DNA of 64,000 bases from Eledone cirrhosa (Eukaryota): NCBI GenBank assembly GCA_964016885.1, contig OZ024745.1, positions 77,996,001 to 78,060,000 of the forward strand. Direction: 5' to 3'. The translations under genes and the position numbers were made by a program. Position 1 is the first letter of the stretch. Every line of letters begins with the position of its first letter. The notes beneath the pieces were generated by a model. That model saw only the letters and a program-made list of their open reading frames with translations. It was not told the DNA's origin and did no database searches. This document shows, piece after piece, positions 15,858 to 53,633 of this stretch.

Positions 15858-15858
<1 letters not shown>

Positions 15859-19718: not shown

Positions 19719-19759
19719 GTTGGTGGAGAAGAGTTGGCGAAAAGGACGAAAAGGTGCAC

Positions 19760-21584: not shown

Positions 21585-21811
21585 GTTTTATTGTTGGCAA
21601 ATTTGTTATTTTATAACAATTTTTAAATTAAATTTTCGCCCCTAAAGGGCGAAAAATGGGATTACCACCCAGCTAACAATTCAGCTTGGGGGTTAATCTA
21701 CAAAATGATGTTTTTTCAAACAATTAGTTCAGTTTTTTACATAGAAATTAACAAAAAAGCTTACCGGCGATGTTCCACGCGTCAGGCAGATAAAGAGATA
21801 GATAGATAGAT

Positions 21812-23015
21812 AAATTTCTTTATTAGCCACAAGGGCACAAAAGAAGGGGACAAATACAAATGGGGAGTTTACATACAGGTATATGAAAATAAAACTATTA
21901 ATACAATAACAAATAACAATTGAAATCCCCAATAGGGGGAGGTGTTACACAGGGGTTGTACACACCCCGAAAAAATGTACAACCCTCATCTCCAGGAGCA
22001 CCAAGAGTGAGTACTCCCTTCCTCACTTCCTCTTTTTCCTCAATCTTATATAGAGAGAAGGCCCAACCATCTCGGGCCATCTTTGCAACATTCACCCACC
22101 TTTTATAAAATTTGCTGGGGTACAGCACCTCTTTCTCCATCCTGATTCTTCTTCCAAAATGATATTTGAAAAAAACGAATCAGTTGCTCGCCGGAGAGAA
22201 AGGTGTCTGACCTCAGCCCTTTCAACCTCGTCCATCATATAACCTCTTTCACCATAGCCATAACACATAGGAAAACCGCCTCTCCCTCGTTTTTGAAGGA
22301 GGGTGGCGGTTTGATCATGACAATGGACTCGGTGGTCAACTGGACTGGTCCCACCCGCGACAATAATCGTTCTACATAGCCCCACAAGTCGGTAACGCCC
22401 TGGCAGTGTACAAATGCGTGTGCGACGGTTTCCTCGTCGCGCACGTATCTCGGACAGATCTTTTTCGAAGGGTCCTTACCCAAGCGCCCGTGTCTGTAGA
22501 GTTTGTCTCGAAATGGTAGAGCTCCTCGGTAGCACTGCCAGGCCAAGGACTTTTGGAAGTTGTCCATTGGTCCCGGGCGGAAGGTCCTACCGAACAGACT
22601 GGCCAGTTCGTCCTCCTCTACGCCTAGAGTTTTCTCCGAGCGTGTCGTCGCACTTGCTGCGGACCAACCCTCTATAGAATGTAGAAGTGGAGTCTCTACT
22701 GTTCGCCGGGTCCATTTGCCAGAGGATTGTGAGCGCCTGAGCACATTCGATGTGCCAGTCGCCCATTTTCCTCGGTCTTTGCTTGACCCAGGACTGCAGC
22801 TCGGTCAGTGAGACGAGTCGTGGGAAGACTCGCCTCACAAACGGAGCCCACACCGGTTGTCTGGTGAGGAATACGTGAAGGTGCCGCAGCCTGAGCGCGT
22901 GTTTGCGCATCGTGAGCCACGGCCTCCCCAGCCCTCCGTTTGAAGGGTGTTGGCAGCAGATGGATCTTCTCACCAAAGGAGCCCGTTTCTTCCAAAGGAA
23001 TTGGAAGAGCGCGCG
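21812..23015 (-). mobile_element. Second, 5'-truncated Tx1-like LINE copy
   Basis: RRSICCQHPSNGGLG..MDNFQKSLAWQC..CPRY..ETVAHAFVHC is paralogous to 15858-17300; flanked by GATA repeats at 21788-21811 and 23021-23037. Confidence 0.88.
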
Positions 23016-24466: not shown

Positions 24467-26495
24467 CAGTTCAGTATTACTCGCAGTTCAGTATTAACCA
24501 CAGTTCAGTGTTAACCGCACTTCAGTATTAACCACAGTTCAGTATTAACCACAGTTCAGTATTAACCACATTTCAGTGTTAACCGCACTTCAGTATTAAG
24601 CACAGTTCAGTATTAAGCACAGTTCAGTATTAACCACAGTTCAGTGTTAACCGCAGTTCAGTATTAAGCACAGTTCAGTATTAACCACAGTTCAGTATTA
24701 ACCACAGTTCAGTATTAACAACAGTTCAGTATTAACCACAGTTCAGTGTTAACCGCACTTCAGTATTAAGCACAGTTCAGTATTAAGCACAGTTCAGTAT
24801 TAACCACAGTTCAGTGTTAACCGCAGTTCAGTATTAAGCACAGTTCAGTATTAACCACAGTTCAGTATTAACAACAGTTCAGTATTAAGCACAGTTCAGT
24901 ATTAACCACAGTTCAGTATTAACCACAGTTCAGTATTAACCACAGTTCAGTGTTAACCGCAGTTCAGTATTAACCACAGTTCAGTGTTAAACGCAGTTCA
25001 GTATTAAGCACAGTTCAGTATTAACCACAGTTCAGTATTAACCACAGTTCAGTATTAACCACAGTTCAATATTAACCACAGTTCAATATTAACCACAGTT
25101 CAGTGTTAACCACAGTTCAGTGTTAACCGCAGTTCAGTGTTAACCGCAGTTCAGTGTTAACCGCAGTTCAGTATAAGCACAGTTCAGTATTAACCACAGT
25201 TCAGTGTTAACCGCAGTTCAGTATTAACCACAGTTCAGTGTTAACCGCAGTTCAGTATTAACCACAGTTCAGTGTTAACCGCAGTTCAGTGTTAACCGCA
25301 GTTCAGTGTTAACCGCAGTTCAGTATTAACCATAGTTCAGTATTAACCGCAGTTCAGTATTAACCGCAGTTCAGTATTAACCACAGTTCAGTATTAACCG
25401 CAGCTCAGTATTAACCGCAGTTCAGTATTAACCGCAGTTCAGTATTAACCGCAGTTCAGTATTAACCACAGTTCAGTATAAACCACAGTTCAGTATTAAC
25501 CACAGTTCAGTATTTAACCGCAGTTCAGTATTAACCACAGTTCAGTATTAACCACAGCTCAGTATTAACCGTAATTCAGTATTAACCACAGTTCAATATT
25601 AACGACAGTTCGGTATTAACCGCAGTTAAGTATTAACTACAGTTCAGTATTAACCACAGTTCAGTATTAACCACAGTTCAGTATTAACCGCAGTTCAGTA
25701 TTTAACCGCAGTTCAGTATTAACCACAGTTCAGTATTAACCACAGTTCAGTATTAACCGCAGTTCAGTATTTAACCGCAGTTCAGTATTAACCACATTTC
25801 AGTATTAACCACAGCTCAGTATTAACCGCAATTCAGTATTAACCACAGCTCAGTATTAACCAAAGTTCAGTATTAACCAAAGTTCAGTATTAACCAAAGT
25901 TCAGTATTAACCGCAGTTCAGTATTAACCACAGTTCAGTATTAACCACAGTTCAGTATAAACCACAGTTCAGTATTAACCACAATTCAGTATTTAACCGC
26001 AGTTCAGTATTAACCACAGTTCAGTATTAACCACAGCTCAGTATTAACCGTAATTCAGTATTAACCACAGTTCAGTATTAACGACAGTTCGGTATTAACC
26101 GCAGTTAAGTATTAACTACAGTTCAGTATTAACCACAGTTCAGTATTAAACACAGTTCAGTATTAACCACAGTTCAGTATTAACCACAGTTCAGTATTAA
26201 CCGCAGTTCAATATTTAACCGCAGTTCAGTATTAACCACAGTTCAGTATTAACCACAGTTCAGTATTAACCGCAGTTCAGTATTAAACACAGTTCAGTAT
26301 TAACCACAGTTCAGTATTAACCACAGCTCAGTATTAACCGCAATTCAGTATTAACCACAGTTCAGTATTAACCAAAGTTCAGTATTAACCGCAGTTAAAT
26401 ATTAACTACAGGTCAGTATTAACCGCAGTTCAGTATTAACCACAGTTCAGTATTAAGGACAGCTCAGTATTAACCACAGCTCAGTATTAACCGCA
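24467..26495. repeat. 17-bp tandem satellite (CAGTTCAGTATTAACC[A/G]), about 119 units
   Basis: Contiguous tandem units without unique spacers. Confidence 0.97.
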
Positions 26496-27385: not shown

Positions 27386-27916
27386 TATAAAGTAAAGCAT
27401 GTCCATAGAATCGTTTGATAATATATATACATCATTTCTTCTCCCAATTAGCATAATTAACCGCACAAAAAATCAATTAGACCAGGCTATAAGATTAAAA
27501 GGCACCTATGAAGAAACAGTAAATAAATAAACGATAGTAGCGTACAGTGTCTAGCTACCATCGTGGCTCATTTGTTCAACACTGACAAAGGAACGCTGTA
27601 CTAGTTTCAAGCTTATTAGCTATCGTCAGCAACGTATACCTTCCTGCCAGATGATTGAACGTCTTAAAGTATATACTTTCAGACGTTCCTTTGTCAGTGT
27701 TGAACAAACGAGCAACGATGGTTGCTAGACATTGTACGGCTTAATACGGGATGTTTCTTTACAAACACACCGAGCATTACAATAAATGTTCGGTGAATCC
27801 ATACGTACATATATATATGTGTGTGCATGTATGTATATATATATATATACATACTACTGTACGTCTGTATACATATATGTATGTACGTATACATACTTAT
27901 ATTTAAGTAACAGCCG

Positions 27917-27918
<2 letters not shown>
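27385..27918. mobile_element. Head-to-head HHR element (family also at 37057-37589), with (TA)n on both sides
   Basis: Inverted arms 27541-27595 and 27683-27739; 27684-27900 matches 37355-37589; 27390-27545 (minus) matches the 12-kb element repeat. Confidence 0.75.
27593..27635 (-). ncRNA. Minimal type I hammerhead ribozyme
   Basis: acgttg CTGACGA t agct aata agct t GAAA ctag TA cagcgt. Confidence 0.82.
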
Positions 27919-27956
<38 letters not shown>

Positions 27957-28042
27957 ATGTTAGGTAATTCCAAAGAAAAAGCAAAGGACAAAAGTGTGCT
28001 CTATGTATAAAACAGAGCTATTTAATTAGAAAGTATAACTAC

Positions 28043-28108
28043 TCCATTACCAAAGGTTTCAGGACCCTAGACAATATTAACATACGCCTAGTTCGCCCAT
28101 CAGACAGA
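28043..28108 (-). ncRNA. Hammerhead ribozyme variant (core CTGATGG) within inverted-repeat element 27960-28250
   Basis: tctgt CTGATGG ...tag-hairpin... GAAA cctttgg TA atgga; the 3' half is repeated inverted at 28160-28207. Confidence 0.55.
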
Positions 28109-28242
28109 CTGGTTATGAAATATATTAATAATATTCTGCAATGACCTTTTTAATAGTGTCGTATGTTAATACTGTCTACGTTCCTGAAACCTTTGGTAAT
28201 GGAGTAGTATGGTTCTTATATATTTGATATATATTTATCCTT

Positions 28243-28443: not shown

Positions 28444-28735
28444 ATATATATTAAATGCTGGAGAGAACAACAATGATTTTTGAATACATATATTTTTAAA
28501 GGCTGACAATTTGTTTCAAACACTAAACCATCAATATGCACGTTGATGGTATGGATACCGATCAAAAATCGATATCCGTGCAATGAAAATAAATGGTTGA
28601 TTTAGTGCCCTAATCAAAGCCAAAAGAAAGGATTATAGCATATTAACTCAAAAATAAAATCATATCACCGAAGTGAAGAACCTACAGTAAAGGTGGTATT
28701 TGGATAGTAAAAAACATATATATATATATATATTA

Positions 28736-29304
28736 AAATTTTAGTAAGTACGTTAATTTTATAATTTTCTTATTTTACGTCTCTCATATTATTGTTCTGC
28801 AACCCCATGCATTGAACCACAAATTTACTAAGACAAAACCTATATATTTGCTAGCATAAGTATGCATCTGTGTGTATATATATGTTACTAGATATACTAA
28901 TTCTTTATAATTATCTCCAAATTATTTGTCGAGTAAAATTGGCCAAGACTGCTGCTATGGTAACAGTCAGGCTGTTGTCTTCTTAACAAACCACTTTCCA
29001 CTGATTGACCTCGATGTCACGTGATTGATTCTTTTGAATTTGCCACCGACGCAGTAGGCAGTGATTTTCTCAATGGCGAGGAATTTAGTCCATGCTTTGC
29101 TTTTTTCTATCCACTGAATTATTTTTGTATAAGTTCCCAGTGTCCACGTATTGCCTGGAAACTTAGCTGAGAATAGACTTCCCTGATGACGAAAGGTTTC
29201 TCTGTACACTTCTTCGGAAAGTATGTTTATTCCCTTTCAGAAACTAACTAGTTGGGAGTGAAATTTTAGTAAGTAAGTTAATTTTATAATTTTCTTATTT
29301 TACG

Positions 29305-29312
<8 letters not shown>
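28736..29312 (+). mobile_element. Non-autonomous HHR element, 525-bp unit plus ~52-bp terminal redundancy, in (TA)n
   Basis: aaattttagtaagta..tacgtctctcatat occurs at 28736 and 29261; homologous to 37671-38890. Confidence 0.82.
29177..29259 (+). ncRNA. Type I hammerhead ribozyme with long stem II
   Basis: acttcc CTGATGA c gaaagg [..] cctttc a GAAA ctaactag TT gggagt. Confidence 0.75.
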
Positions 29313-29377
<65 letters not shown>

Positions 29378-29985
29378 GTGGGGGGTAACCAGTTGGTGCG
29401 TAATGTTAATTATTACAAGTGGTACCTGGTCTTTAGCATCCAATGCTTTTATGTATAAGGTAAAAAGTGTCCCATATATAAGCGCTGTGGAATGAACAAG
29501 AAAATCATGGTCGCTACATAAGGAACTTTTATTAAGAAAATAGCTTATTTCGAAGTTATTGTCGATAAGGCAGGAAAACAACAAAGAACCTTGTGAATTG
29601 CGTGTTATGTTGGTTTGCGTGAAGGTAGTAGTAATCTGACCAGATACATGAACTCACCTTTATCGAAGTTGACGAATCCTACCGACTGGATTAGAGTGTT
29701 TGTCTAAACGCTACATCTCTCTATTCCTTGAACAACTCGAAGTGATCCTTCTTTTCCGAGAAACCAAGATGGAATGACTTGGAGAAAAAGTTATCTCATT
29801 TAATCACAGGCCTTCCAGCCTTTCCAGACCACTGGCGCCAACCCGAGATAAAGAGAAACAGTTTTTGGTGGCCGCTTAACAGACCGAATGAAACAGTATT
29901 GCAAAGAGTATCAAATTACTGCTACATATGTATGCAAGTTTATATATATATATATATTTATGTAATAAACAACATAAGGCAATTA

Positions 29986-30046
29986 TTTCATTTACCAGTC
30001 GTTTCTTAAAAGCAAAAAAAATTTGCTTTCAATCATCAGAATGAAA
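29986..30046 (-). ncRNA. Type I hammerhead ribozyme (mirror copy)
   Basis: Reverse complement of 30105-30165 with small changes. Confidence 0.75.
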
Positions 30047-30104
30047 AAATCATGGTGTATTTATTGGCGTTTAAAATCCAACGCCAATAAATACACCAGG
30101 ATTT

Positions 30105-30165
30105 TTTCATTCTGATGATTGAAAGCAAAATTGTTTTGCTTTTAAGAAACCACTGGTAAATGAAA
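30105..30165 (+). ncRNA. Type I hammerhead ribozyme
   Basis: tttcatt CTGATGA ttgaaagcaaaa ttg ttttgcttttaa GAAA ccactgg TA aatgaaa; all three stems pair. Confidence 0.88.
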
Positions 30166-30261
30166 TAATTGCCTTATGTTGTTTATTACATAACTATTAA
30201 GCTCTGTTACCTACATAGAGCACTCTTTTTTCCTGGACTTTTCCGACGGAATTACTTCATT

Positions 30262-30356
<95 letters not shown>

Positions 30357-30364
30357 ATATACAT

Positions 30365-31126
30365 AGTTTTGGTGACAAATACAGTGAAGGAGGCAGAGGA
30401 TTTGATGCGGGAGGTTGAGACTGTGTCGATGAGTGTGGGGCTGAGAATGATTGAGACTAAAACAAAATATCTGGTAGATAATGTTGAGAAGCCAGAGGGG
30501 ATCACTAATGTAGGCGGGAAGCCGCTAGAATTGGTTGAGGGCTTCCTGTATTTGGGAGCAAAGATTGGGAATACGGAGGATGGTGTGGTTGAGAGGAAGA
30601 GCAAAGCCTGGACGGCGTGCCACAGCCTGAGATCGGTGTGGAAGTCGGACCTTCGTAAAGACCTGAAAATCCGCCTCTTCGTTGCTGTAGTGGAGTCTGC
30701 GTTGCTGTAGTGTCTGAGACTTGGACACTGACCAAGAAACTCACTCAGATGGTGGATGGGTGCTACACGAGAATGCTGAGGATGGCTCTGAACATTAATC
30801 AGTATACACTGAGGATTAAAAACTCAGAGCTGTATGGGGGCATCCCAAAAGTCAGCTCAAAATTGACACAGAGGAGACTGAGGTTAGCTGGACATGCTGA
30901 CCGACATCCAGAGTTGACATTGCACTCAGTGCTCCTTTGGGTGCCCCTACATGGACACACTGGAAGACGAAGACCAAGGTTAAGGTATGTTGATGCCCTA
31001 AGGACAGACACTGGTCTGCTGGAGACGCAGGACATGGCAGCGATAATGAGGGGCAGAGACCGCTGGAGAGAACTCGTCCATGGATCTCGGGAATTCTACC
31101 CGCCATAGATAGATAGATAGATAGAT
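30365..31126 (+). mobile_element. 5'-truncated RTE-clade LINE (end of RT and C-terminus) with (TAGA)n tail
   Basis: VGLRMIETKTKY, FLYLG, LKIRLF..VESALL*, SETWTLTK..DGCYTRMLR, RRLRLAGH, GRRRPRLRYVD; stop at 31108 followed by TAGA repeats. Confidence 0.85.
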
Positions 31127-32547: not shown

Positions 32548-32650
<103 letters not shown>

Positions 32651-32651
32651 T

Positions 32652-32683
<32 letters not shown>

Positions 32684-32688
32684 CACAG

Positions 32689-32732
<44 letters not shown>

Positions 32733-32871
32733 ATACTTTGGGAGGGTCATGTTGCCAATAAGGAACACACGCACCAGTTGCTTTCACTTCAATTTATTAT
32801 AAATTTATAAATTTAGGAATTTATAAATTTCTGGTTGGTTGGTTCCACAACCAGATAGTTGTTTATATATT

Positions 32872-32914
32872 GTCAAAGTTCTTTCGTCACACATTCTGTG
32901 ACCATTTCAGTGAC
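32872..32914 (-). ncRNA. Minimal hammerhead ribozyme in PLE-2 3' pLTR (core mutated)
   Basis: gtca CTGAAAT g gtcaca gaatg tgtgac GAAA gaac TT tgac. Confidence 0.55.
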
Positions 32915-33116
32915 TGGAGATTCTTTTCTTTGTTTTTTGTGCCTCTCCTTTGTTCTGTCCTACGCCATTTTGTTTCTGTGTGTGTTTTGTGTGCTCAGTC
33001 TGCGCATGCGCCACATCTGGGTGTCTGTGTGTGTTTATATTTGTTTATTTATTTGTTTATTTACATGTTACCGGTTGGTTGTTTGTTCTATGTGTGTGTG
33101 TGTTTTCATTTTGTCC

Positions 33117-36100
33117 TTAATTGTAAGTTGTGATGTTGCTGTTCCACTCATATTTTCTATTTAATTTTGGTTGTAATTCTTTTATGTTTATTGCCTCTGT
33201 GATTTGTCTAAACATTGCGTCTTTTCTGTGTGTAGATTCTATTTTTATTTCTATGTTCTCTAATTTACCCTTATGTTCTATTTTAGCATGTTGGTAGAGT
33301 ACAGATGATTCTTTACTATCTTGAAGGTCTCGCCAGTGTTCATTTATCCGTTCCCCTACACTACGAACTGTCTCACCTATGTACACTATATTTTTATCTC
33401 TACATTGTCCTTCAGTACATCTTATGCTATACACTACATTTCTAGTTTTACAGTTAATATGGGGCTTATTTTACAGGTTATACATTTCTTATCTATACAG
33501 GGGGTCTTTGGAAAGGGTATGTCTTGCTAATAAGTGTTTTTACGGAGGTACCTGGTCTTTCTACTATCTTAATATTGAGTTTATGTTTATCTAGGGCCCT
33601 TCTAAATTTGTAAGCTAATTCACCTCTAGGGGTTGTATCGATGAACATTACACTCTGGTATTTATTGCTATCATACCATGAGTTTATTCTATTAGCCTTA
33701 TTCCTAGTTCTTTCTATTCTATTCCAAAATTTGCTCCTATACAAGGGGCAGGTCCCATTTGTGTCATTATTTACCATTTTTTCCCATTTGGTTCTGGCTC
33801 CTCTATACACTCTGATTCTATCTCTCTGATTGTAACCAGAGAACTGCATACGGTAGATGAAGTGTTGTATGTGTCTCTCTAGTTCTTCGGGGTTACACAT
33901 GCGGGACACGTTTCTCATCACCCGTACCAGATCCGCAATCAGTATGTTGATTTTGGTATGGTCCGAAACAGCCGAGTTTCGGTGGATCAAATGTTTGGAA
34001 GTCATGGGTTTGGCATAATGGGAATGGAGGATTTGTTTTTTGTTATTAATGGTATCTAACCAGAGCTCTGTGTCTAGTACAGGTAATCGATGGTTGGGGT
34101 GTTTACTTGGGTAGTCTCTAGTAACTCTAATACTCTGGTGGATGGAGTTAGCTATTTGCTGGATGCTTTCCATTGTGTTTTTCTCTAATTCCTGACTGTT
34201 CTCTAGTGGGGGTGTCTTAACTATGATGTTTATATCGTCAACGTAGCGGGAGTAGATTATCAGGGTTAAGGGGTCTTCTAATTGTTCTTTAAGTTTAAGT
34301 TTAAGTCTACTGTCCCACCATACCATGAATAAGTTAGCTATGTCGGCTGCAATGCTAACACCAATGGCTGCTCCTTCCTCTTGGGCATATGTTTTTCCAT
34401 TAAATTTGAACATATGTTCCTTAAGGGTTAGTTTTATGCTGGCCCCTACCGCATGTGCAATCATTTTCTTCAGCTCATCGTGGTTTTCGGGTGTCCGTAT
34501 GGCTCTGGTCCACCCGTTCCATCTATCTGTGTGGGTTTTCTTGGCCATTGAGGTAATGGTAGGTGATCTGCCTCTTGCTGGTCTTGTAGGGCACAGGTTG
34601 CTAAGGTCATATGTGTCTAGGTAATTATTACTATAGGTAAGTTTAAGTAGGAGTCCCAACTCACTGGTATCAATCCCACGGAACTCAACATTGCTCTCAC
34701 CGATCATTTCTACGCATTTCTCCACAGCAAAATCCACGTCAATAGATGGATACAGGGACACAACATCCATACTACCTATTATGCAGTTTGTTAGGTCCCT
34801 AGATCGGTTACTCTCGCCGATTCCGCTGAGGAGGTCCTCCGTGCTGTCACATACATCTGGGGACATTTCAATGATGGGGCGTATGATCAGGGAGAGGAAG
34901 TAGGACAGTCTGTAGTTACTAGCAATGTTAGCCCCACAGACTGGCCGTGTTGGTGGTCCCGTGACAGGGTCACTGCCCGTTTTATGGTCTTTTCGAAGCC
35001 CATACAACGCCGGCACGTCATTGTTCCAGGCCTGAAAGTTGTTGGCAGTCCTTTTTGGGGGCTGTATTATATTCGTCCACATCACCATATGAGCATTGAG
35101 GGCTTTATCTCCATCCTCATGCTCCTGTGGTGTTACCTCTCTTGTGTTAGTGATGTGGGGTTGCATTACCTGGATGTAGTTTGGCAGGCTGTCAACCGAC
35201 ATTCTGCCAGACTTGTCTGTTGGAAAGCATGCTATCTCTCCATTACGCGAGCGCTGCATGAGCTTACGCAAGCCATTTGCAGATTTTTCTCCCAGTTGCT
35301 GGGCCTCCATTCTATTATGCTTCTTGCTATACTGTTCTATAATATTTCTAAGTTCGGATTTAGCTATACTAAATTGTACTTCTATTTGTTCATCGACCTG
35401 CGACGGCAATTGCGTGCGTTTGTTAAATGGTAAAGTCGTGGCGTGGACTCGTCGTAGGTCGAACGACTTATCGGAGGGATTATAAAAAGTAGAGTTCCAG
35501 GCTGCTGCTTTATGTGTACTCGTGCTATTGTTATTGTTAGTTGTGTTGTTTCTATTTCTATTTCCACCAACAGCCTCGTGGTTGTTTCTATGTCTCTCAT
35601 AATTACTCCTGTCTCTTTCCACTGGCTCATTGTTATTATCTACTCTATTTTGTGTGTCTGTGTGTTCGTCTTGGTTATTTTCTTTGTCCATAGTCTCCCT
35701 TCTCCTTTTAATCCTATTACTTTCCCTTATTTCTGTGATTTCTGTGCTACTGTCATTACTTGTTTTCTGTGTCTGTGTGTTTGTTAAGATTGTGGTGGTG
35801 GTGAGAGGCATTGAATGTGTGTGTGTTGTTGTTGTTGATGTGTGCTGTTGTTGATGTGTGTTGTTGTTGCCTCCGTGTGTGTTATTATTGTTGTGTGTGT
35901 TGTTATTGTTGTTTGTGTCTGCGTGTCTGTTGTTGTTGTTTCTGGGTATGTTATTATTGTTGGTGTGTGTGCTGTTGTTATTGTTGTTTGTGTCTGTGTG
36001 TCTGTTGTTGTTGGGATGTGTGTTGTATATGTGTGTGCGTATATTGTTACTTTTGTTTTTGTTTTTGTTTTTGAGGCTCCAACGTAATTTTGTAAATGAT

Positions 36101-36760
36101 TTTTCTATTTCTGACAGACAACTAATCATATTTACCTTCTTGAATGTCGCAAATTTCGGTGGTAGAAGTAATACAGATAACTGATCGTCATCTATTGCCG
36201 TGTTGCCGTATATATTTGTGTTGTTGTTGTTGTTGAAGTCATCTGTTAATGAGGTGTCGGCCATATTTATACCGTCAATTTTGTCGGGATATCTATTGGT
36301 ATTCTCTACAGTATCCTGATTTAGTTTTATCTGCTAAAGCCACTTTCTTGAGCAATGTACTGTTCTTCAGGACGTATAAGGCTTATAAATATTAGTTTCT
36401 CTCTTGGTGTGGTGATCCTAGCTATTTCTTGTATGAGGTTACGCTTATGTTTTTCTTGATGACTTAATTCTCTATAGATCTTCTTTTTTATGTTTAGAAT
36501 TAGTGTTCGTTTTAGGCTATCTGCTTGTTTTTTTGGTGAGTTGTAATCCTCTTACGTCGGTGTTGGTGTAAACTCGGGACGAGGCACATTCTTTTATGAA
36601 GTGTAGTTGTCGAGATGTTATGGTTTTTCGTAGACAACAGAACATGGTGGTTTTCAGTATCTTGTTAGCTTACGATATTTCGTTTCTGAATTTGTTTAGC
36701 AGGATTCTTTATCTGAAATCGTGTGTTGAAACCGATATTGTTATACTTTGGGAGGGTCAT
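33117..36760 (-). pseudogene. PLE-2 RT/GIY-YIG ORF; 923-aa open core (33493-36264), frameshifted EN (33117-33490) and disrupted N-terminus starting MTLPKYNN at 36760
   Basis: LYGLRKDHK, MDVVSLYPSI, YSRYVDD; CIDKKCITC linker; VYSIRCTEGQC..YIGETVRS..RINEH..LYQH..RQITEA. Clearly homologous to PLE-1. Confidence 0.88.
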
Positions 36761-36872
36761 GTTGCCAATAAGAAACACACGCACCAGTTGCTTTCACTTC
36801 AATTTATTATAATAAATTTATAAATTTCTGGTTGGTTGGTTGGTTCCACAACCAGATAGTTGTTTATATATT

Positions 36873-36915
36873 GTCAAAGTTCTTTCGACACACATTCTGT
36901 GACCTCTTCAGTGAC
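36873..36915 (-). ncRNA. Minimal hammerhead ribozyme in PLE-2 5' pLTR
   Basis: gtca CTGAAGA g gtcaca gaatg tgtgtc GAAA gaac TT tgac; intact core. Confidence 0.75.
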
Positions 36916-37069
36916 TGGGGATTCTTTTCTTTGTTTTTTTTTACCATTACCTCAATGGCCAAGAAAACCCGGATGTGGCGCATGTGCAGACTGAGCTCAC
37001 AACACACACACAGAAACAAAATGGCGTAGGACAGAACAAAGGAGAGGCACAAAAAACACTGACAAAGGA

Positions 37070-37112
37070 ACGCTGTACTAGTTTCAAGCTTATTAGCTAT
37101 CGTCAGCAACGT
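37070..37112 (-). ncRNA. Minimal type I hammerhead ribozyme
   Basis: Same motif as 27593-27635. Confidence 0.82.
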
Positions 37113-37314
37113 ATACCTTCCTACCAGATTGTTGAACGTATATACTAACCTTATGCATATTAACGGCTGAGTAGCCCAATTTGCATAACGAGTGGGTTAA
37201 TCGGCCGGGTGCACCAAAAACGATAAACGGAAAAAATGAAACGAAATTTCATTTCCCACTCTTAGTACGGCTGTTACTTAAATATAAGTATTCAACAATC
37301 TGGTAGGAAGGTAT

Positions 37315-37357
37315 ACGTTGCTGACGATAGCTAATAAGCTTGAAACTAGTACAGCGT
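37315..37357 (+). ncRNA. Minimal type I hammerhead ribozyme
   Basis: acgttgCTGACGAtagctaataagcttGAAActagTAcagcgt. Confidence 0.85.
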
Positions 37358-37582
37358 TCCTTTGTCAGTGTTGAACAAACGAGCAACGATGGTTGCTAGA
37401 CACTACGGCTTAATACGGGATGTTTGTTTACAAACAGACCGAGCATTATAATAAATGTTCGGTGAATCCATACGTACATATATATATATGTGTGCATGTA
37501 TGTATGTATGTATATATATATATATATATATATATACATACTACTGTACGTCTGCATACATATATGTATGTACGTGTACATA

Positions 37583-37673
<91 letters not shown>

Positions 37674-37833
37674 AATTAGTATATCTACCAACATATATAT
37701 ACAGATGCTACCTATGCTAGCAAATATATAGGTTTTGTCTTAGTAACTTTGTGTTTCAATGCAAGGGGATGCAGAACAATTATATGAAAGACGTAAAATA
37801 AAAAAATTATAAAAATTAACTTACTAAAATTTC

Positions 37834-37916
37834 ATTCCAACTAATTAGTTTCTGAAAGGGAATAAACATGGTTTCCGAATGGAACCATGGAGAAAATCCT
37901 TTCGTCATCAGGAAGT
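37834..37916 (-). ncRNA. Type I hammerhead ribozyme with long stem II (mirror copy)
   Basis: Reverse complement of 38753-38835. Confidence 0.75.
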
Positions 37917-38752
37917 CTATTCTCAGTTAAGTTCCCAGGCAATGCGTGGACACAGGGAACTTATACAAAATAATTCAGTGGATGGAAAAAAGCATGCGAG
38001 GACTAAATTCCAGGACATTGAAAAAATCACTGCCTACTTGGTCGGTGGCAAATACAAAAGAATCAATCACGTGACATTGAGGTTAATCAGTGAGGAGTGG
38101 GGTGCTAATAAGACAAGAGCCAGACTATTACTATGAACCATAGTAGTAGTTTTGACAAATTTTTGCTCAACAAAATAATTTGGAGATAATTATAAAGAAT
38201 TAGTATATCTACCAACATATATATACAGATGCATACCAATTGAATAAATATGGTTTCCATTCGGAAACCATGTTTATTCCCTTTCAGAAACTAATTAGTT
38301 GCAGTGAAATTCTAGTAAGTAAGTTAATTTTTATAATTTTCTTATTTTACGTCTTTCATATAATTGTTCTGCATCCCCTTGCATTGAACCACAAAGTTAG
38401 TAAGATAAAACCTATATATTTGCTAGCATAGGTATGCATATGTATATATATGTTGGTAGATATACTAATTCTTTATAATTATTTCCAAATTATTTTGTTG
38501 AGCAAAAATTTGCCAAAACTACTACTATGGTTAATAGCAATAGTCAGGCTCCTGTCTTATTAGCACCCCACTCCTCACTGATTAACATCAATGTCACGTG
38601 ATTGATTCTTTTGAATTTGCCACCGACCAAGTAGGCAGTGATTTTTTCAATGTCCTGGAATTTAGTCCTCGCTTGCTTTTTTCCATCCTCTGAATTATTT
38701 TTGTATAAGTTCCCTGTGTCCACGCTTTGCCTGGGAACTTAGCTGAGAATAG

Positions 38753-38835
38753 ACTTCCTGATGACGAAAGGATTTTCTCCATGGTTCCATTCGGAAACCA
38801 TGTTTATTCCCTTTCAGAAACTAATTAGTTGGAGT
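38753..38835 (+). ncRNA. Type I hammerhead ribozyme with long stem II
   Basis: acttc CTGATGA c gaaagga ttttctc catggttcc attc ggaaaccatg tttat tccctttc a GAAA ctaattag TT ggagt. Confidence 0.8.
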
Positions 38836-39018
38836 GAAATTTTAGTAAGTAAGTAAATTCTTATAATTTTCTTATTTTACGTCTTTCATATATATATCTA
38901 TCTATATATATATATAAGTATTGAAATTTCCGTTGAAAACAGAAAAGGTCATAGAAGTGAAGAGTGCTCTATGTAAGCATCAGAGCAAAATTTAATGTAT
39001 AAAAATCAATACAATATA

Positions 39019-39096
39019 ATTACCTCATTACCAGAGGTTTCCCGAATGAGGCGAATACGAAAGAAACGTCTTCATTCGTTCGTCAGACGAGGCAAT
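39019..39096 (-). ncRNA. Type I hammerhead ribozyme (mirror copy)
   Basis: Reverse complement of 39243-39320. Confidence 0.82.
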
Positions 39097-39242
39097 ATAA
39101 AACATGGGTAAATACTTGGAAAGTCTCATCAAGAAAAGCAAAAAAAAAAAAAAATATATAGATCAAATATATGATCTATATCTTTTTTTTTTTTTTTTTG
39201 CTTTTCTTGATGAGACTTTCCAAGTATTTACCCATGTTTTAT

Positions 39243-39320
39243 ATTGCCTCGTCTGACGAACGAATGAAGACGTTTCTTTCGTATTCGCCTCATTCGGGAA
39301 ACCTCTGGTAATGAGGTAAT
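39243..39320 (+). ncRNA. Type I hammerhead ribozyme
   Basis: attgcctcgt CTGACGA a cgaatga [22 nt] tcattcg g GAAA cctctgg TA atgaggtaat; 10-bp stem I. Confidence 0.88.
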
Positions 39321-39342
39321 TATATTGTATTGATTTTTATAC

Positions 39343-39400
<58 letters not shown>

Positions 39401-39644
39401 TAAAAAGGAAAAGAAAATGCTGACAAATTTTTCCCAGTGAAAAATAGTTTAATTAGGAATAAGTATAAATTAGTAATAAGTATTGGTTAGTATTCAGTTT
39501 TAGTTTTTAAGCTTTTACCGGTTGCGCATTTCTAATGCTTTTCAAAAATAATTTTGAGATAGAGCTCTCGTGATGTTTGCTCTAATCTGTATATATATAT
39601 ATTTTAATAAATATATATATATATATATTCATTATTATCATCAA

Positions 39645-40028
39645 GAGCGGTGGATTGGCAGTATCGGTAGAGGGTCGGACGCCATGCTTTGACGCATAGA
39701 GTTACGTCCCTTGCCATTCTGAGTTCAAATCCCGCCGAGGTTAACTTTGCCTTTCATCCTCACGTGGTCGATGAAATAAAGTACCAGTAATGCACTGAGT
39801 AATTGCTGGCCTTGTGCCTAAAGTAGAAACAATTAAGGGCGGTGGATTGGCAGTATCGGTGGAGGGTCGGACGCCATGCTTTCCAGGATAGTTACGTCCC
39901 TTTACGATCTAAGTTCAAATCCCGCCGAGGTTGACTTTGCCTTTCATCCTTACGGGGTCGATAAAATAAAGTACCAGTAATGTACTGGATAATTGCTGGC
40001 CTTGTGCCTAAAGTAGAAACAATTATTA
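39645..40028 (+). mobile_element. Tandem dimer of tRNA-derived SINE (39645-39835, 39836-40028)
   Basis: A-box-like TGGCAGTATCGG, B-box GTTCAAATCC, core GCCTTTCATCCTTACGGGGTCGATAAAATAAAGTACCAG, tail GGCCTTGTGCCTAAAGTAGAAACAATTA. Confidence 0.88.
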
Positions 40029-40815
40029 TCATCTAGTTTTTGATTATGCAGGACACAATCCCTAAGTAAGGGTGAGTCCTACCTGACAGCGCTAATTAGC
40101 ACCCCGCTACATGTGTTTCTGTCCACCGGTCTCATTTGTACCAGGCCAAGCCAAACTTTATATATATATATTCCATTTATGTTAGGTTATTTACCAATGG
40201 GTAAAACTGGTGATTCCGGTTAGTAAACGATGTTGCAATAAATTAGAACACTCGACGTCGTAACACTAGATGTCGTATCCTGTGGCTGGTGCAGGAACGG
40301 ACTTAAATATTTATTGAAAAGAACAAGAGGCCGGACAAGAAATTTATTTTAGTATTCCGCGGAAACACTATACATGTTTCGACGGCCTTGCTTTTTGACC
40401 TAGTCACGATGCAAGACTTCGTATGAATGAAAATGCTGAAGAAGTATCTATCAAATAATAACATAAATGATACGAATACTCTGAAACAATTGTTATTGGT
40501 TTGTCGATTGACAAAATTTCTGCATGTGTTTATGTATTATTTGCACTTGTGTGAACCTGCAACCAATCCCCCTCAAATTTCACGATACCCTCATAAATAA
40601 TATAGTTAACCATACATGTCACTAAAACGATTGGTTGGTTGCACCTGAATATCTTTTATCAAAGATCTGCTCATCAACGGCTTGCTTACATTTTGTTCTA
40701 GTTATTACTACCGGTGTTCAGTAACACATTTATCCCCGACGTAAGATAATTTTGGACACATTCGTGCATGTGCACACACATACATACACATATACATAAA
40801 ACGACGGCAAATATT

Positions 40816-41024
40816 GGTATCTACTTTAGGCACAAAGCCAGTAATGTTTTTTTTTTGGGGGGGGGGTCGATTAAACCGACCCAATTCGTTACTGGTACTT
40901 TATTTTATTGACCCCGTAAGGGCGAAAGGAAAACCTAACCTCGGCGGTATTTGAACTCAGAACGTAAAGTGCAGTAACAATATGCCGCAAAGAATTTTGT
41001 CCGACGCTCTACCGATACTGCCCT
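40816..41024 (-). mobile_element. tRNA-derived SINE with 11-bp target-site duplication
   Basis: Reverse complement of the SINE consensus; cggcaaatatt at 40805-40815 and 41025-41035. Confidence 0.85.
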
Positions 41025-42312: not shown

Positions 42313-42625
42313 GAGAGAGATACATGACTGTGGAAGAGGGGTAAGGAATGCTATAACTAATTAACATGTGTGCGTGTGTGTGTGCGTGCGCGAGCGTGTG
42401 TGTGTGTGTTCGTGCAGCGTTCCAGTAAGATTTAAATCTATTAAGCGAGGATAATACGTCGTTATGTGGACCGAGAAGAACAATTTCATGCAAAGACAAG
42501 ATCAAGTTTATGGTGTAAATGGAGTCGTTAGACTAATATTCTATTTAAAATAACCGAATGATTTCCAGCCCCGGAATTTAAGAATGATGTAAATAAAATT
42601 GTAAACGAAAATGAGAGGTTATTAA

Positions 42626-42740
42626 AATAGTTGTTTCTACTTTTGGCACAAGACCAGCAATTAACCAGTACAATACTGGTACTTTATTTTATCGACCCAG
42701 TATGGATGAAAGGCAAAGTTAACCTCGACGGGAATTTAAC
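42626..42740 (-). mobile_element. SINE 3' half
   Basis: gtttctacttttggcacaag...ggatgaaaggcaaagttaacctc. Confidence 0.8.
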
Positions 42741-43039
42741 TTTGCCTTAAAATAGTAAAAGTAAATAGTGAAGATTTAGGCCAGTACATACGTATGCGCC
42801 GACGGACATACACATACATATACACACAAACACACACACGCGCGCGCGCGCACGTCTGTGTGTGTAAACCTTATGCATTTCTACAGTATTTTCACTAAAC
42901 TTAAGACATAGTTTGCTTATGTACTCAGGATTGTCATGGGCACTTTCATTTTTCCAGATATTGATTATAGGGCCTCCCGGCAGATAACCCCCTTTAACCA
43001 GTTCCTTGGAGTCGACTGAAGCACTGCAGTGCAATGCAA

Positions 43040-43688: not shown

Positions 43689-43787
43689 TATATATATAAT
43701 TTTTAAAAAATTATGCTCTGTGCCCTTTCCTAAGTGATTCATATTGATATATTGATACAGCGGCTGGAGAATCTAATATTAACCCCT

Positions 43788-44410
43788 CTACCATGCAACA
43801 CTCTCTCTCATTCCCTCTCACTCTATCCATCACTACCAAACTCCCCCCTCATTATATCTACCATAGAAAACTCTCTCCCAATTCCATCTCTATATCAATT
43901 ATAACCAATCTATCCCCCTCTCTATATCTACCATATAACACTCTCTCTCATTCCCTCTCACTCTATCCATCACTACCAAACTCCCCCCTCTTTATATCTA
44001 CCATAGAAAACTCTCTCCCAATTCCATCTCTATATCAATTATAACCAATCTATCCCCCTCTCTATATCTACCATACAACACTCTCTCTCATTCCCTCTCA
44101 CTCTATCCATCACTACCAAACTCCCCCCTCTTTATATCTACCATAGAAAAGTCTCTCCCAATTCCATCTCTATATCAATTATAACCAATCTATCCCCCTC
44201 TCTATATCTACCATACAACACTTTCTCTCATTCCCTCTCACTCTATCCATCACTACCAAACTCCCCCCTCTTTATATCTACCATAGAAAAGTCTCTCCCA
44301 ATTCCATCTCTATATCAATTATAACCAATCTATCCCCCTCTCTATATCTACCATACAACACTTTCTCTCATTCCCTCTCACTCTATCCATCACTACCAAA
44401 CGCTCACCTC
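43788..44410. repeat. 140-bp CT-rich minisatellite, ~4.4 copies (degenerate to ~44700)
   Basis: ccat[ag][ct]aacact recurs at 43791, 43931, 44071, 44211 and 44351. Confidence 0.93.
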
Positions 44411-45694
44411 TCTATATCTATCAATACCTATATCTATCAATCATCTCACTCTTTTCATTACCACCAAACTCTCCCCTTCTCTACATCAACACTCTCTCTT
44501 AATTCCCCTTCTATATATCTACTACACGGAACTCTTATCCATTCCCCCTCTCTATATCAATTAGCACCAAACTCTCTTCCAATAACCCTTTCTATATCAC
44601 TAAACATCAATCTCTCCCCCTCTCTATATCTAATATACAACACACTCTCCCAACATTCCTCCCTATATCAATTACCACCAAACTTTCCCCCTCTGTATAT
44701 ATGTATCTATCTTTCCCGTTTGTCTCTACATAACATGTACATAAATTGTAGCGCATATACAAATAGATTTGTGCATTGGTAGTTTGGGGAGAAAAATATA
44801 ACTATTGGGTGTGCCATTGCCCCACTGCCACCCCCTCACCCACCCCCTGTCCACCGCCCCTAGCATTACCATATATATGAACCTTATATTTCAGATACAC
44901 ATTGAATAGTGTAAGTATGTACGATATTATCACTGGTGTTTTAATTCAAGCTATAGTCATCAATACATTCTCCATGTTTAGGATACTTCATTTGCTCGTG
45001 TCATGTAGTTGATTTAGTAGGTGCCCCAATATCAGATTTTCAGTGTTCATTTGTCAATATGTAACTTATGCTACTGTTGGTGTTAGGGTTGTTGTTGATG
45101 TTGCTGTTTATACTCCAGTATTTCTGTGTAAGTTAGTCGTATAATCAAATAGATTCCAGCGGTGACTGTCCTTCTGTTCTTCAGATGAATCGTATGAAGG
45201 ATCATATTATCCAATAAGTGTGATACTTTTAATTGATTTATATATAATGATATGGTCTGGTGACAAGTCCTTTAATTTGATATTCCTTTTGAGCAACAAG
45301 ACTTTTACGGCTGCAGGAAAAATACGTGAATGACGGAAATTACAGAGACATTTTACGTGTTTTTCTTTCTAATCTGGCGGGTAAACAAGAACTTTATCTT
45401 CACGATATGTGACCTGTTCCTGACATAAATCTATTGGACATGGACATATGTTTTAGGAATTATTGCAATGCCCTGAAGGTTGAGCCATCTAGACATCTAT
45501 ACAGTGTAATACTCGTCGTCGATAAGATGTAATCCTGAATGATATTTAGATGGTAGATTAAATATATAGTGAAGAGTTGCCTAAAGCCTTGCATATTTTG
45601 TTAAAAGAAACATTCCTTCTCACTCCACTTTCTCTGTATATCTTTCCCTCTCTCTTTACTACACATGTGTAAACACAAGGGCACCCATATATGG

Positions 45695-45748
<54 letters not shown>

Positions 45749-46185
45749 TGTGTGTAAAACAATGAAAGAAGTCAAGGTGGAATCGTTAATTAATCCATTG
45801 TTTTACGATCGTTTCAGGGGATAAAATTATAGATAACATTTAGCCAACTCCATACTATTAGCATAAAAATATAAGTCCATAATGCTGTCTATACTAAAAA
45901 ACAATGTCTGGGTCAGATTCTTTATTAATAGATGATTCGATGAGATATTCCCATCACCACTACATAAAGTTATAAATTGGTTATGAATCCTACATTGATT
46001 AGGAAAAACACTAATGTCTATATATGGATTTTTATTGACTGTTTTTATTTATTTTGCAAGGGATGGAAATTGCTAAAGAGCCTATTCTGTTGATGATATT
46101 TGATTAATTAAGGATAAGCACATTAATTTTTCACTTGACATTTATTCAAATTCAAATTTTGATTCTTGTTAAATTCTAATTGTAA

Positions 46186-46368
46186 TAATTGTTTCTACTT
46201 TTTAGCACAAGGCCAGCAATTACCCAGTGTATTACTGGTACTTTATTTTATCGGCCCTGTAAGGATGAAAGGCAAAGTTAACCTCGGTGGGATTTGAACT
46301 CAGAATGCCAAGGGCCGTAATTCTATGCGTCAAAACATGGCGTCCGACCCTCTACCGATACTGCCAAT
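46186..46368 (-). mobile_element. tRNA-derived SINE
   Basis: Full reverse-complement match to the 39645 copy. Confidence 0.88.
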
Positions 46369-46781
46369 TTGTAATGATGTTATATTTATTCTGCTATTAT
46401 ACGCAAACAATTCATTGTTTCTGCTTGATTTAACTTCGTCAGCACGAAGCAATGAGGATTCATTAAATTCATATCATAATTAAAACATTGACTTTATTCA
46501 ATGTTTTTGGAAAATTTCCAACATGGTGAGAGAGAGATAACAATGCGTACATATATTTGATAAGGAATTATTGTTTGTGACTGATTTTTGATGAAGTAAA
46601 TCAAAAGAAAAGAAGGTACGAGGGTCGGCTAAAAGGTTCATAGGCTGACTATGAAGAAATGATGCTAGAGCTGTAAAATCTTACACGTATCAATTTCAAC
46701 TTTTCTCTAGCCAGGAAATGTAACTTTAATATGCATACAGTGGAACTATAGGGTTAGATTATTATTGTGTAAAAATCTGAG

Positions 46782-46930
46782 GGCGGTGGGTTGGCAGTTT
46801 CTGTAGAGCGTCGGGATGGAGTTACGGCCCTTTACGTTCTAATTTCAAGTCACGTTGAGGTTAACTTTGCCTTTCATCCTTACGGGGTCGATAAAATAAT
46901 GTACCAGTAACGCACTGAGGTCGATTTAAT
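46782..46930 (+). mobile_element. tRNA-derived SINE, diverged
   Basis: ggcggtgggttggcag..gcctttcatccttacggggtcgataaaataatgtaccag. Confidence 0.8.
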
Positions 46931-50373: not shown

Positions 50374-50684
50374 TATATATGTGTGTGTATAAACATGTGC
50401 GTGTGTGTGTGTATGCATGTATAATATAAAATATTATATACATACATACTCGCACACACATACACACACGCAAGAATATATATATATATATCCACACACA
50501 TTCATGTTATTAAGGCTAAATAGTGAGTCTTGTTACTGTGGAGTTTCGCCTGTTTACACAGGCTAATAAACAGGTGAATCTACTACAGAGTAACAAGTCT
50601 CCCTAGTTAGCCTTAATAAAATCGATCTATGGATTATTCTTTTCTTTCAGCCGTCAATCACATACGGATATATATATATATGTC

Positions 50685-51030: not shown

Positions 51031-51226
51031 ATGTATCTGTGTGTATATATATATATATATATATAATGTGTGTGTGTGTATATATATATTTTGGGGACAC
51101 CCTGTATGGAAGCGTCTTGTTGAGTCAAACTAAGCCACACGTTAAAACATCCACAACACGGAATACTCTAACTGGACTACCTCTAAGTGGATTACCTATA
51201 ACGATAACTTGTTATCCTAAATATGT

Positions 51227-51282
<56 letters not shown>

Positions 51283-51340
51283 GTGTGTGTGTGTGTATAT
51301 ATTTAGGATAACAAGTTATCGTTGGGGTCTTACTTGTTCC

Positions 51341-51405
<65 letters not shown>

Positions 51406-51630
51406 GTTAAGTGTGAAACAACATTTACAGGCGGCACGCCGTTCGAAACAGTCGATAACTCGATGCTGCTATGAGGTCCGTTTTGTTCGGGTTGTTACGG
51501 CTGTAGCGTGCAGAGTGTAAATAGATTTAAAAGAGACGAAGTCAGTGTTGCAGTATATGTATAAAACTTTATTTGCATACTACAATTGTTTCGATATCAA
51601 TCAGCTCAGGATACAATCAAGGTGAGGCTC

Positions 51631-51719
51631 GCATACCTGATGAGATATCGAAAAAGAGTCCGACACCCTTACCTTGATTGTACCCTGAGCTGATCGATAT
51701 CGAAACAATTGTAATATGC
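51631..51719 (+). ncRNA. Type I hammerhead ribozyme with long stem II, with inverted partial copy at 51564-51627
   Basis: gcatac CTGATGA gatatcga [~42 nt] tcgatatc GAAA caattg TA atatgc; the inverted arm preserves the perfect stem I partner gtatgc. Confidence 0.82.
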
Positions 51720-51791
51720 AAATAAAGTTTGTACATATTTGTTCATATGCTCTACTCTTCTAACTCCCTCCCTCTCTCCCATCTCTCTCTG

Positions 51792-51972: not shown

Positions 51973-53633
51973 TCAGATACGACTAGAGGTAAAGGCCGAA
52001 GGCTCAGTTGTTATCGGCATACGATTTTCATGCTGTAGATTCCAGATAATTGTTTTATTATGTTCTGATATTATTAAGCATATCCTGTACACTGCATGTA
52101 CATGTATATACATGTAACCTATACATTGATCAAAAGTCTTTAATACTGATTAATAAAATAAATTGGTTTAGATAGGGCCTTTCTTTTTTCGGAGGCGGGG
52201 CTTCATTTATTTATTTTTTTTTCGTCTGACATGTGCTTATTATTAGCTTTGAATCGGCTTCTACATATGTAATATATATAATATATATGTTTTATTTTGA
52301 AAAAGAGTTTCTTTTACATATAAAACTTAAAACACGTGTTTTGAAGTTTCGCTATTTTAATTCTCGGATTTTATTATTCTTAGGTAAATTATATATTTTT
52401 AGAGAAAAGTTAACATTATACAATCTCATTCTTTACCCTACAAAGTTATTACAGTCTATGATGTAAGAAGACAATAGATAAGTTACACATCAGAAGGAAG
52501 AGAATGAAACTACAATAGCGTAATAGAATATATGTATATATGTATGTACGTACGTACGTATGTATGTATGTGTGTATGTATGTATGTATTTATGTACAGG
52601 GGCCGTGAAAGCCTGAATTGGGAGTGCGGTATGGGGCATATTTGGTCGATTTAGTTGTAGTGGTTAGTTTAGCTGTTATCAACCAAGATATATAAACATG
52701 TACATAAATTGTAACGCATATAGAAATAAATGTGTTTTAGTTTGGGGAGAAAAATATAATTATTGGGAGGGGTGGATGACTTCTCTGACTCCCTCCCCCA
52801 ATTCCACCGCGTCTAATGTGTGTATGTATGTGTGTATGTATGTGCATGTGTGTGTACATGAATATATGTCTGTATTATGCATGTATGTGTGTGTGTGTTT
52901 ATATATGAAATGCGATATATCAGTTTATATGTTTTTGCTGTTTAGTCCCAAGCCAGCACTAACTGATCACGTAGAGGCTCACTACGATATATGTATAAAT
53001 TTATATGAGTGTTCACGGTCCCCCGCACGTGCCCCCAAAGACACACACTTATATGATGAGGACCCAATGGTGTCCAAAAAGCGATTATCAGTGTTTATCA
53101 TTTTTTTTCAATTTTCAGAGAAATTCGTGATTTCTCACATGTTTACATGCCGACATATTCAATATGTGTATATTGATACACACATTGGTGCAGTCTCGGT
53201 TACCCACCGTGTATGTATACAGATATAACTTTATTGTTCGCATACGTATACATATATTTACATTTGCATTATTTTGATGCAGAGTCCTTAAAAAGCAGAG
53301 AATTTCCTTTCTCTGAAACGTTTCTATTTTTCAAAACCCAGCAAGTAGATGAATGTTTATGTTTCACTGATGAGATCGTAATAAGATTGAACTTATACGC
53401 AGTCGTCTCCCGTAGATGCCAAAATACTTAAAATGATATTAGTCAATAACTATTATTGTTGTATATATATACACATTTTTTTTGGCACCGGATAATTATA
53501 TATAGCATTTTAAAATCATGTCTGTGTCAAATTAAATATGTTAGTAGTAATGTTTTAATGATTCTTTTTATGCCAATGACTTCTCTGAGAAATATTTATA
53601 GTGTATCCAATGAATCAATATATATATGTGCAA

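Follow-up and report, generated by a model that had tools for sequence, protein, structure and literature searches.

A tail-to-tail junction between a Penelope-like element and a hammerhead repeat in Eledone cirrhosa, most likely formed by serial insertion at one (TA)n tract

The window, which is the whole 64,000-nucleotide stretch that we analysed, is repeat-rich animal DNA. Within it, a dead Penelope-type copy on the minus strand (PLE-2) runs at its 5' end through a chain of short pieces derived from itself and is then joined, without a TA spacer, to a two-armed hammerhead repeat (nE). The coordinates of these features, and of a second nE copy about 27 kb into the window, are collected in Table 1.

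Table 1. Features of the PLE-2/nE locus and of the second nE copy, by position in the window.
Feature	Position	Strand	Remarks
3' fragment of hammerhead family D	27386..27541	minus	far end (TA)n; AGC overlap with nE
Second nE copy	27542..27917		palindromic centre 27668-27677; hammerhead kept in left arm only
Left target end of PLE-2	32552..32728		(CA)75 (TA)14 microsatellite; taken to have primed PLE-2
PLE-2	~36940 to 32729	minus	Penelope-type, dead copy
PLE-2 3' UTR and 3' pLTR	32729..33120	minus	hammerhead core mutated (CTGAAAT), fails descriptor
PLE-2 C-terminal GIY-YIG endonuclease	33123..33470	minus	CCHH residues; Pfam PF01541, E 4.3e-5, above cutoff
PLE RT open frame	33496..36333	minus	946 codons; Asn-rich N-terminal part
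PLE 'tail'	36675..36734	minus	read loose ends: other copies reach (TA)n at 36675 and 36735
Partial 5' pLTR	36735..36939	minus	type I hammerhead 36911-36877; stops at equivalent of 32938
RT coding piece, 29 bp, from 34561-34533	36942..36970	plus	inner end of inverted PLE arm
Inverted pLTR piece, 92 bp, from 33022-32931	36967..37058	plus	outer part of inverted PLE arm
AACA overlap, PLE-2/nE tail-to-tail joint	37055..37058		21 nt past predicted nE cleavage site, 212 nt short of usual 3' end
nE left arm	37055..37291	minus, continuous	tail 37291-37266, 128-nt spacer 37265-37138, hammerhead 37106-37076, post-cleavage part
nE right arm	37291..37584	plus	hammerhead 37321-37351, then downstream part, TA-rich end on (TA)n
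(TA)n common to nE and next hammerhead element (family B, 37671-38890)	37585..37670		

The RT frame of PLE-2 has its best protein match in an Octopus vulgaris hypothetical protein (69% identical over residues 300-946), and its match to RVT_1 (E 9e-4) falls below the cutoff. Three-frame translation revealed two frameshifts between this frame and the GIY-YIG domain, and stops interrupt the frame upstream of 36333. A CX4CX2C linker lies in the frameshifted stretch between RT and endonuclease (EN) in PLE-2 and in frame in a second Penelope-type element of the window, PLE-1; a CX2-5CxxC linker at this place marks EN+ PLEs, as described in PMC8557442. The layout of PLE-2 is that of the EN+ Neptune/Nematis type and not Naiad, a putative clade assignment made from layout. 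Naiad/Chlamys was ruled out by the C-terminal EN and the hammerhead, as that class has an N-terminal endonuclease and no canonical hammerhead. With canonical EN+ PLEs (Neptune or Nematis), as they are described in PMC8557442 and PMC3846280, PLE-2 has in common an RT followed by a C-terminal GIY-YIG domain, the cysteine linker, an Asn-rich stretch, a pLTR complete with hammerhead, partial tandem and tail, an adjoining inverted 5' piece and a (TA)n target. It differs in that its inverted arm begins within the pLTR, beside the end of the direct arm, instead of at the pLTR 3' end, and abuts another repeat, whereas the canonical arm meets (TA)n or a target-site duplication (TSD). The hammerheads of the two pLTR copies have decayed differently: the 3' copy (32868-32919) has a mutated core and an intact stem II, and the 5' copy (36869-36920) has kept its core and carries a mismatch in stem II. 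PLE-1 (2246-8078) has a 1021-codon frame with an in-frame linker, a GIY-YIG-like C terminus and a tail at its left end; it carries a 2-kb inverted arm with a 510-nt internal jump, has both ends on (TA)n and is about 71% identical to PLE-2 in DNA.

Self-BLAST and alignment recovered, in order, all four pieces that the original prediction had listed at the PLE-2 5' end. The partial 5' pLTR, placed by the prediction up to about 36943, ends at 36939 and aligns in the same orientation to 32725-32938 with 5 substitutions in 201 aligned bases and 3 gaps. The opposite-orientation RT piece, given as about 27 bp from about 34532-34560, measures 29 bp counting overlaps and is the exact reverse complement of 34533-34561 (29/29, E 4e-9). 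The inverted pLTR piece, given as about 88 bp at 36971-37058, extends to 92 bp and is the reverse complement of 32931-33022 at 88/92 positions (E 7e-38); it passes through the predicted AACA overlap into the hammerhead element. At the junction at 36942 the T-run is 9 long, against 6 in the 3' pLTR, with 1 T in common, and ACCC at 36967-36970 is common to the RT piece and the inverted pLTR piece. The prediction was right to read the PLE-derived pieces as a single retrotransposition event; ACCC marks a template jump, and AACA is a longer overlap than chance would usually produce. The inverted and partial-tandem 5' ends that it ascribed to PLE RTs are already known for these elements. The inverted arm of PLE-1 offers a parallel to the ACCC jump, with about 510 nt skipped at a 1-nt overlap. 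On the RNA, the direct pLTR piece of PLE-2 ends at the position corresponding to 32938 and the inverted piece begins at 32931, so that they overlap by 8 nt; by chance, two breakpoints would come this close (10 nt or less) in 0.5% of cases on the 4010-nt unit and in 5% if confined to the pLTR. Reads of other copies run straight on across the inversion (all but one of the 15 joints listed link 36916-36939 to 37049-37056), so the PLE-2 inversion is not the standard form of the family.

What the prediction called the hammerhead element is one arm, the left, of an insertion with two arms that reaches 37584. The first 82 bp of the right arm are identical to the left arm (0/82 differences), and 37055-37139 matches the second nE copy at 27578-27662 (82/85, self-BLAST). 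Together the arms make 1.2 turns, in permuted order, of a unit of about 443 nt, with a longest stop-free frame of 69 codons; a scan of the window for an nE dimer of whole tandem units found none. This order is characteristic of the family, as seen in contigs that cover 37100-37255 and 37166-37273 and in other copies, which pass 37291 into the TA-rich part. The two copies in the window reach (TA)n at two sites about 20-26 nt apart, much as the PLE tail marks two RT start sites in the account of PMC11167929, and the inner end of the nE left arm falls on the very bases at which (TA)n takes over from the right arm (chance 4.7%). In the second copy the left arm is joined without TA to the family D fragment, which is 19% diverged from the family D copy at 11.8-12.7 kb, and the right-arm hammerhead has been lost between two CGTTC words (a 68 bp deletion). 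The arms at 37 kb carry in common a letter that is rare in the family (37123/37304), possibly from a circular RNA template or from a hairpin or later conversion. A search for further nE copies in metagenome and viral contigs returned 0 matches, and the one match in a PDB search (E 0.48) was disregarded.

The type I descriptor gives the nE hammerhead a stem I of 6 bp and a helix III that is palindromic, a type thought to be active as a dimer, according to PMC4209133. The descriptor found 13 sites in the window, compared with a mean of 0.07 in 30 Markov-1 controls. Because bare-hammerhead fold z-scores were unremarkable, the call rests on descriptor and control, by which the predicted hammerheads of the window are real motifs; the 137 Rfam matches at E up to 1 included no hammerhead family, just microsatellite noise. 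The circular fold of nE (-144 kcal/mol, z -7.9, 0/60 shuffles) is inflated by a TA-rich hairpin, without which z is about -2.8 per arm.

nE aligned with PLE-2, the PLE-1 pLTR and the four other hammerhead families of the window no better than shuffles did; its scores of 22-24 against the PLE-2 pLTR were equalled by 15/50 and 38/50 shuffles. nE is thus unrelated to PLE-2, as had been predicted, and we rejected the idea that it is a non-autonomous derivative of PLE-2, since its similarity to the PLE-2 pLTR does not rise above shuffles. nE appears to work like a metazoan non-LTR retrozyme: in common with these, as described in PMC7229834 and bioRxiv 10.64898/2026.07.22.740005, it has a non-coding unit of a few hundred nt (GC 36%), a type I hammerhead, a tandem order that extends beyond one unit (1.2 units here), great abundance and a genome shared with PLEs. 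It differs in its head-to-head arms in (TA)n, in place of whole-unit arrays, and in that no parent pLTR was found. PLEs are the helpers proposed for such retrozymes in the same two sources. In run X5, summed depth, which is not a copy number, was 0.65-2.1 million for nE, 1.6-1.9 million for the pLTR and 6-30 thousand for the PLE ORF, which shows that the short units nE and pLTR both far outnumber the PLE ORF.

The orientation of the pieces bears on how the AACA joint arose. The plus strand reads (TA)14, 4.2 kb of antisense PLE, 117 bp of sense PLE, 237 bp of antisense nE, 294 bp of sense nE and (TA)n, so that each strand reads sense then antisense across AACA (PLE sense into nE antisense on the plus strand). 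Since reverse transcription yields the antisense of its template, a cDNA that switched from one sense RNA to another would carry two antisense stretches in succession. L1 chimeras that arise by switching or RNA ligation have both partners in the same orientation, as reported in PMC13174262. At AACA the partners lie in opposite orientations, and the joint does not coincide with an end that the RNA would have naturally, for instance the hammerhead cut, as it would in a chimera of the U6/L1 type. RNA ligation at the cut was therefore rejected: the joint is 21 nt past the predicted cleavage site and has the wrong polarity. If both inner arms were plain simultaneous cDNAs, both would start at AACA and each would need the second strand of the other as its primer; at least one partner was thus presumably double-stranded DNA already at the time of joining, or a less direct route was taken. 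Two points temper this reasoning. Two-armed nE loci can yield read-through RNA that holds both arms, and the argument is weakened if PLEs self-prime on antisense templates, a model proposed for them in PMC3846280. The template-switch chain into a hammerhead RNA that the prediction had drawn does not agree with this polarity, nor with the finding that both elements are complete two-armed insertions.

PLE-2 and nE each look like a complete two-armed insertion with its own twin-priming signature. In each the two breakpoints lie within about 10 nt of one another on the RNA (overlapping by 8 nt in PLE-2, adjacent in nE), and the outer junction carries microhomology, AACA; four or more common bases are expected in 1.8% of position pairs when the PLE-2 and nE sequences are joined at random. 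Among twin-primed L1 inversions described in PMC11702581, 22/32 have deletions of 1-10 bp and 10/32 have duplications at the breakpoint, 71% have at least 2 bases of overlap at the outer junction, and a TSD is mostly retained. The locus has in common with L1 5' inversions of that source breakpoints no more than 10 nt apart on the RNA, the overlap at the outer junction and an end-joined centre. It differs in its PLE enzyme, in the 1.5-kb jump within the inverted arm and in that no TSD is visible, the flanks being a microsatellite and another repeat. A PLE protein cuts and extends both strands and uses tandem RNA in vitro, as reported in PMC11167929. Twin priming is shown for L1, and our literature search, which covered few subscription journals, found no description of it in PLEs.

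Where each piece comes from, how the pieces are ordered and oriented, and where they overlap can be read directly from the DNA. We judge it somewhat probable that the AACA junction records two successive insertions at one (TA)n, with the second cDNA of the later element primed on the end of the earlier one; this weight, like those on the other readings, is the author's judgement and not a computed likelihood. For PLE-2, the left (TA)n end would have primed a cDNA on tandem PLE RNA, copying one unit and then 205 nt into the pLTR that follows. The opposite side of the break would have primed the same RNA directly beside the stop of the first cDNA, copying 92 nt, and this second cDNA would have jumped 1.5 kb upstream at ACCC and copied 29 nt before the cDNA ends were joined, as in twin priming. 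Likewise for nE, on a tandem or circular RNA of 1.2 units, one cDNA would have begun on (TA)n at the usual 3' site, next to which the second would have stopped. PLE-2 may have landed first, between two TA runs, with nE later entering the right-hand run at its edge or after trimming, and the AACA end of the PLE-2 inverted arm may then have primed nE RNA internally at UGUU. This order, with nE second, is the one we tentatively prefer. It is the simplest. Little of the target has to be lost, and the 27 kb copy, which is joined to an older-looking family D fragment, agrees with it. PLE-2 second is a rather unlikely order: it requires the loss of up to 212 bp of nE arm, although it has a precedent in Pen2_Av, a Penelope copy that lies inside an older element, lacks a TSD and has microhomology at its 5' junction, described in PMC3846280. 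We looked for a remnant of the outer left nE arm on the far side of PLE-2 and of the family D fragment and found none, so neither of these landed inside a preserved nE arm. In either order a PLE-type enzyme likely moved nE; the site is silent on whether it was that of PLE-2.

Relative divergence leans the same way. The repeated pieces of PLE-2 differ at 9/322 positions and the nE arms at 0/82, which leans towards nE being the later arrival, but the difference is not significant (Fisher p 0.21). Letters private to the locus make up about 1% of both elements (6/696 bp on the ORF side, 3/297 bp in the pLTR pieces and 4 in about 340 bp of nE, counted by hand over 40 of 212 rows), and an equal age of PLE-2 and nE fits these counts as well. 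Serial landing in one TA tract is common in the window, where nE, family B and family F follow one another with only TA runs between them. We placed 19 arm ends from 10 elements by hand, not counting the palindromes at 50-51 kb and 56.5 kb or the decayed element at 27960-28215. A TA run adjoins 16 of these ends; the remaining 3 belong to the two nE left-arm joints. Several findings count against serial insertion, besides the lack of a visible TSD. Both nE copies (2/2) are fused without TA, which is more than edge-cutting comfortably gives, with the proviso that the 37 kb joint was picked for being TA-less; and the 27541 joint has the polarity of a template switch. At that joint (27386-27917) the family D fragment and nE meet through AGC, antisense then antisense, and it is a better candidate than AACA for a template switch between two hammerhead RNAs.

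The original prediction had proposed instead that one integration event used both PLE RNA and the hammerhead RNA. As a simple switch this fails on polarity; by less direct routes it keeps a minor share of the probability. In such an event, which we think possible but unlikely, the left end of the cut (TA)n would have served as primer on PLE RNA and its right end as primer on nE RNA. For the middle, a read-through transcript of a two-armed nE could have been copied, with a jump at AACA onto free PLE RNA beside the end of the first cDNA; alternatively, a PLE RNA remnant could have primed nE RNA, or two folded-back 3' ends could have annealed at AACA. No target loss is needed in this scheme, as (TA)n borders both outer ends, at sites also used by other copies; PLE-2 and nE are similarly diverged, and the TA-less fused left arm recurs in both nE copies; nE is also very abundant by the summed depths given above. 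Precedents come from L1: opposite-orientation chimeras are ascribed in PMC13174262 to twin priming with two RNAs, and PMC11702581 describes a single tail-to-tail L1/mRNA chimera in cultured cells. The price is to prime four times when the target offers two ends, to use RNA as a primer, or to copy through an RNA hairpin of 82 bp, none of which is a step shown for PLEs, and each element is already complete in its two-armed form. The joint, 21 nt from the hammerhead cut, has the wrong polarity for ligation or a simple switch, nE and PLE-2 have no pLTR sequence in common, and the account of Adineta Penelope families in PMC3846280 reports no observed cross-mobilization. A broader form of the proposal, which we hold to be equally doubtful, is that a PLE-type enzyme takes different RNAs at the two ends of one (TA)n break and that nE is a circular hammerhead RNA that habitually rides the integrations of others. 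It would explain the TA-less fusion of both nE copies to unrelated elements, as well as the 37 kb arms, which are identical, carry the same rare letter and make 1.2 turns of the 443-nt unit.

A later deletion is a still less probable explanation of the joint. The two elements would have landed separately with full-length inner arms and TA between them, and some 400-500 bp between AACA words would then have been lost. This accounts for both odd arm ends together, PLE-1 has the full-length inverted arm that it expects, and overlap-flanked deletion is known here from the CGTTC words of the 27 kb nE copy. It leaves the 8-nt coincidence of the PLE-2 breakpoints to chance (about 5%), however, and longer palindromes in the window persist undeleted.

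Reads were compared from X5 and X6 (one sample), X11 and X1 among the 13 runs listed, leaving out the small shares in X3 and X4. None of the 24 pieces listed spans the joint at 37058 (a further 48,030 pieces and 364 joints lie beyond those listed), so the reads describe families and neither confirm nor refute AACA. An assembly error between two high-copy repeats is very improbable. In its favour, no listed contig or read spans the joint, and the best runs contain 0.59-0.64 of sampled words, near the 0.60 expected with all locus-private words missing. Against it, these runs may come from other individuals or be thinly covered, long microsatellites are resolved in the window, which is free of N, the arrangement of the pieces agrees with a known mechanism to within 8 nt, and an assembler would hardly bring in a 29-bp piece that lies 2.4 kb away. 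We take the junction to be real and legible, with serial insertion its most likely origin.

The L1 chimeric insertions of PMC13174262 resemble the locus in that an autonomous element is joined on its 5' side to an unrelated sequence that derives from RNA. In those cases a single event is proven by one TSD and a common date of insertion, whereas PLE-2 and nE are known from one assembled sequence and both are two-armed. L1 chimeras, PLE hammerheads and retrozymes as likely PLE passengers are, like inverted and tandem PLE ends, already known. In the literature that we searched on PLE chimeras, cross-mobilization and octopus PLE hammerheads, which took in few subscription journals, we found no description of a PLE-retrozyme joint. 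Animal retrozymes have been proposed, from co-occurrence and pLTR similarity, to be moved by PLEs, and a 2026 preprint leaves the mechanism open in its account (bioRxiv 10.64898/2026.07.22.740005). Proven co-integration would be direct evidence of a helper and would show that a shared pLTR is unnecessary; the locus is no proof of co-integration. The prediction that it would directly evidence the helper relationship was overstated, as nE has no sequence in common with the PLE-2 pLTR, and the AACA site probably does not show PLE-2 to be the helper of nE. If nE does ride in with others, TA-less joints would preserve in the genome the copying of retrozyme RNA where a PLE integrated, without a shared pLTR. 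The firmer value of the locus lies in two clean twin-priming signatures in PLE-type insertions, and it offers a test that can be made by counting TA-less joints genome-wide, with their polarity and position.

The window holds further repeats. Four more short hammerhead families (D, B, E and F) lie in (TA)n at 11835-12685, 28734-29310, 29958-30260, 37671-38890 and 38917-39344; they form partial tandems (units of about 650 and about 525 bp) or head-to-head palindromes, and several of their hammerheads have long stem II inserts and were missed by Rfam. An older palindromic relative of the PLE-2 pLTR at 56487-56760 has a decayed hammerhead and no TA flank, and short palindromes, some with hammerhead-like remnants, occur at 27960-28215, 50504-50622, 51200-51323 and 51555-51738. 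The ranges 15800-23000 and 30360-31110 contain fragmented RT frames on the minus strand, presumably LINE-like, and what we take to be an RTE-like 3' fragment whose end is a short tandem repeat. The stretch 24467-26492 is a minisatellite with a 17-bp unit in about 119 copies, and 43787-44649 is a 70/140-bp tandem array. A SINE-like repeat of about 190 bp is present in at least 8 places, twice in tandem (39640-40029, 40768-41022, 42623-42741, 46183-46368, 46780-46930, 53631-53798, 57808-57965 and 62787-63011).
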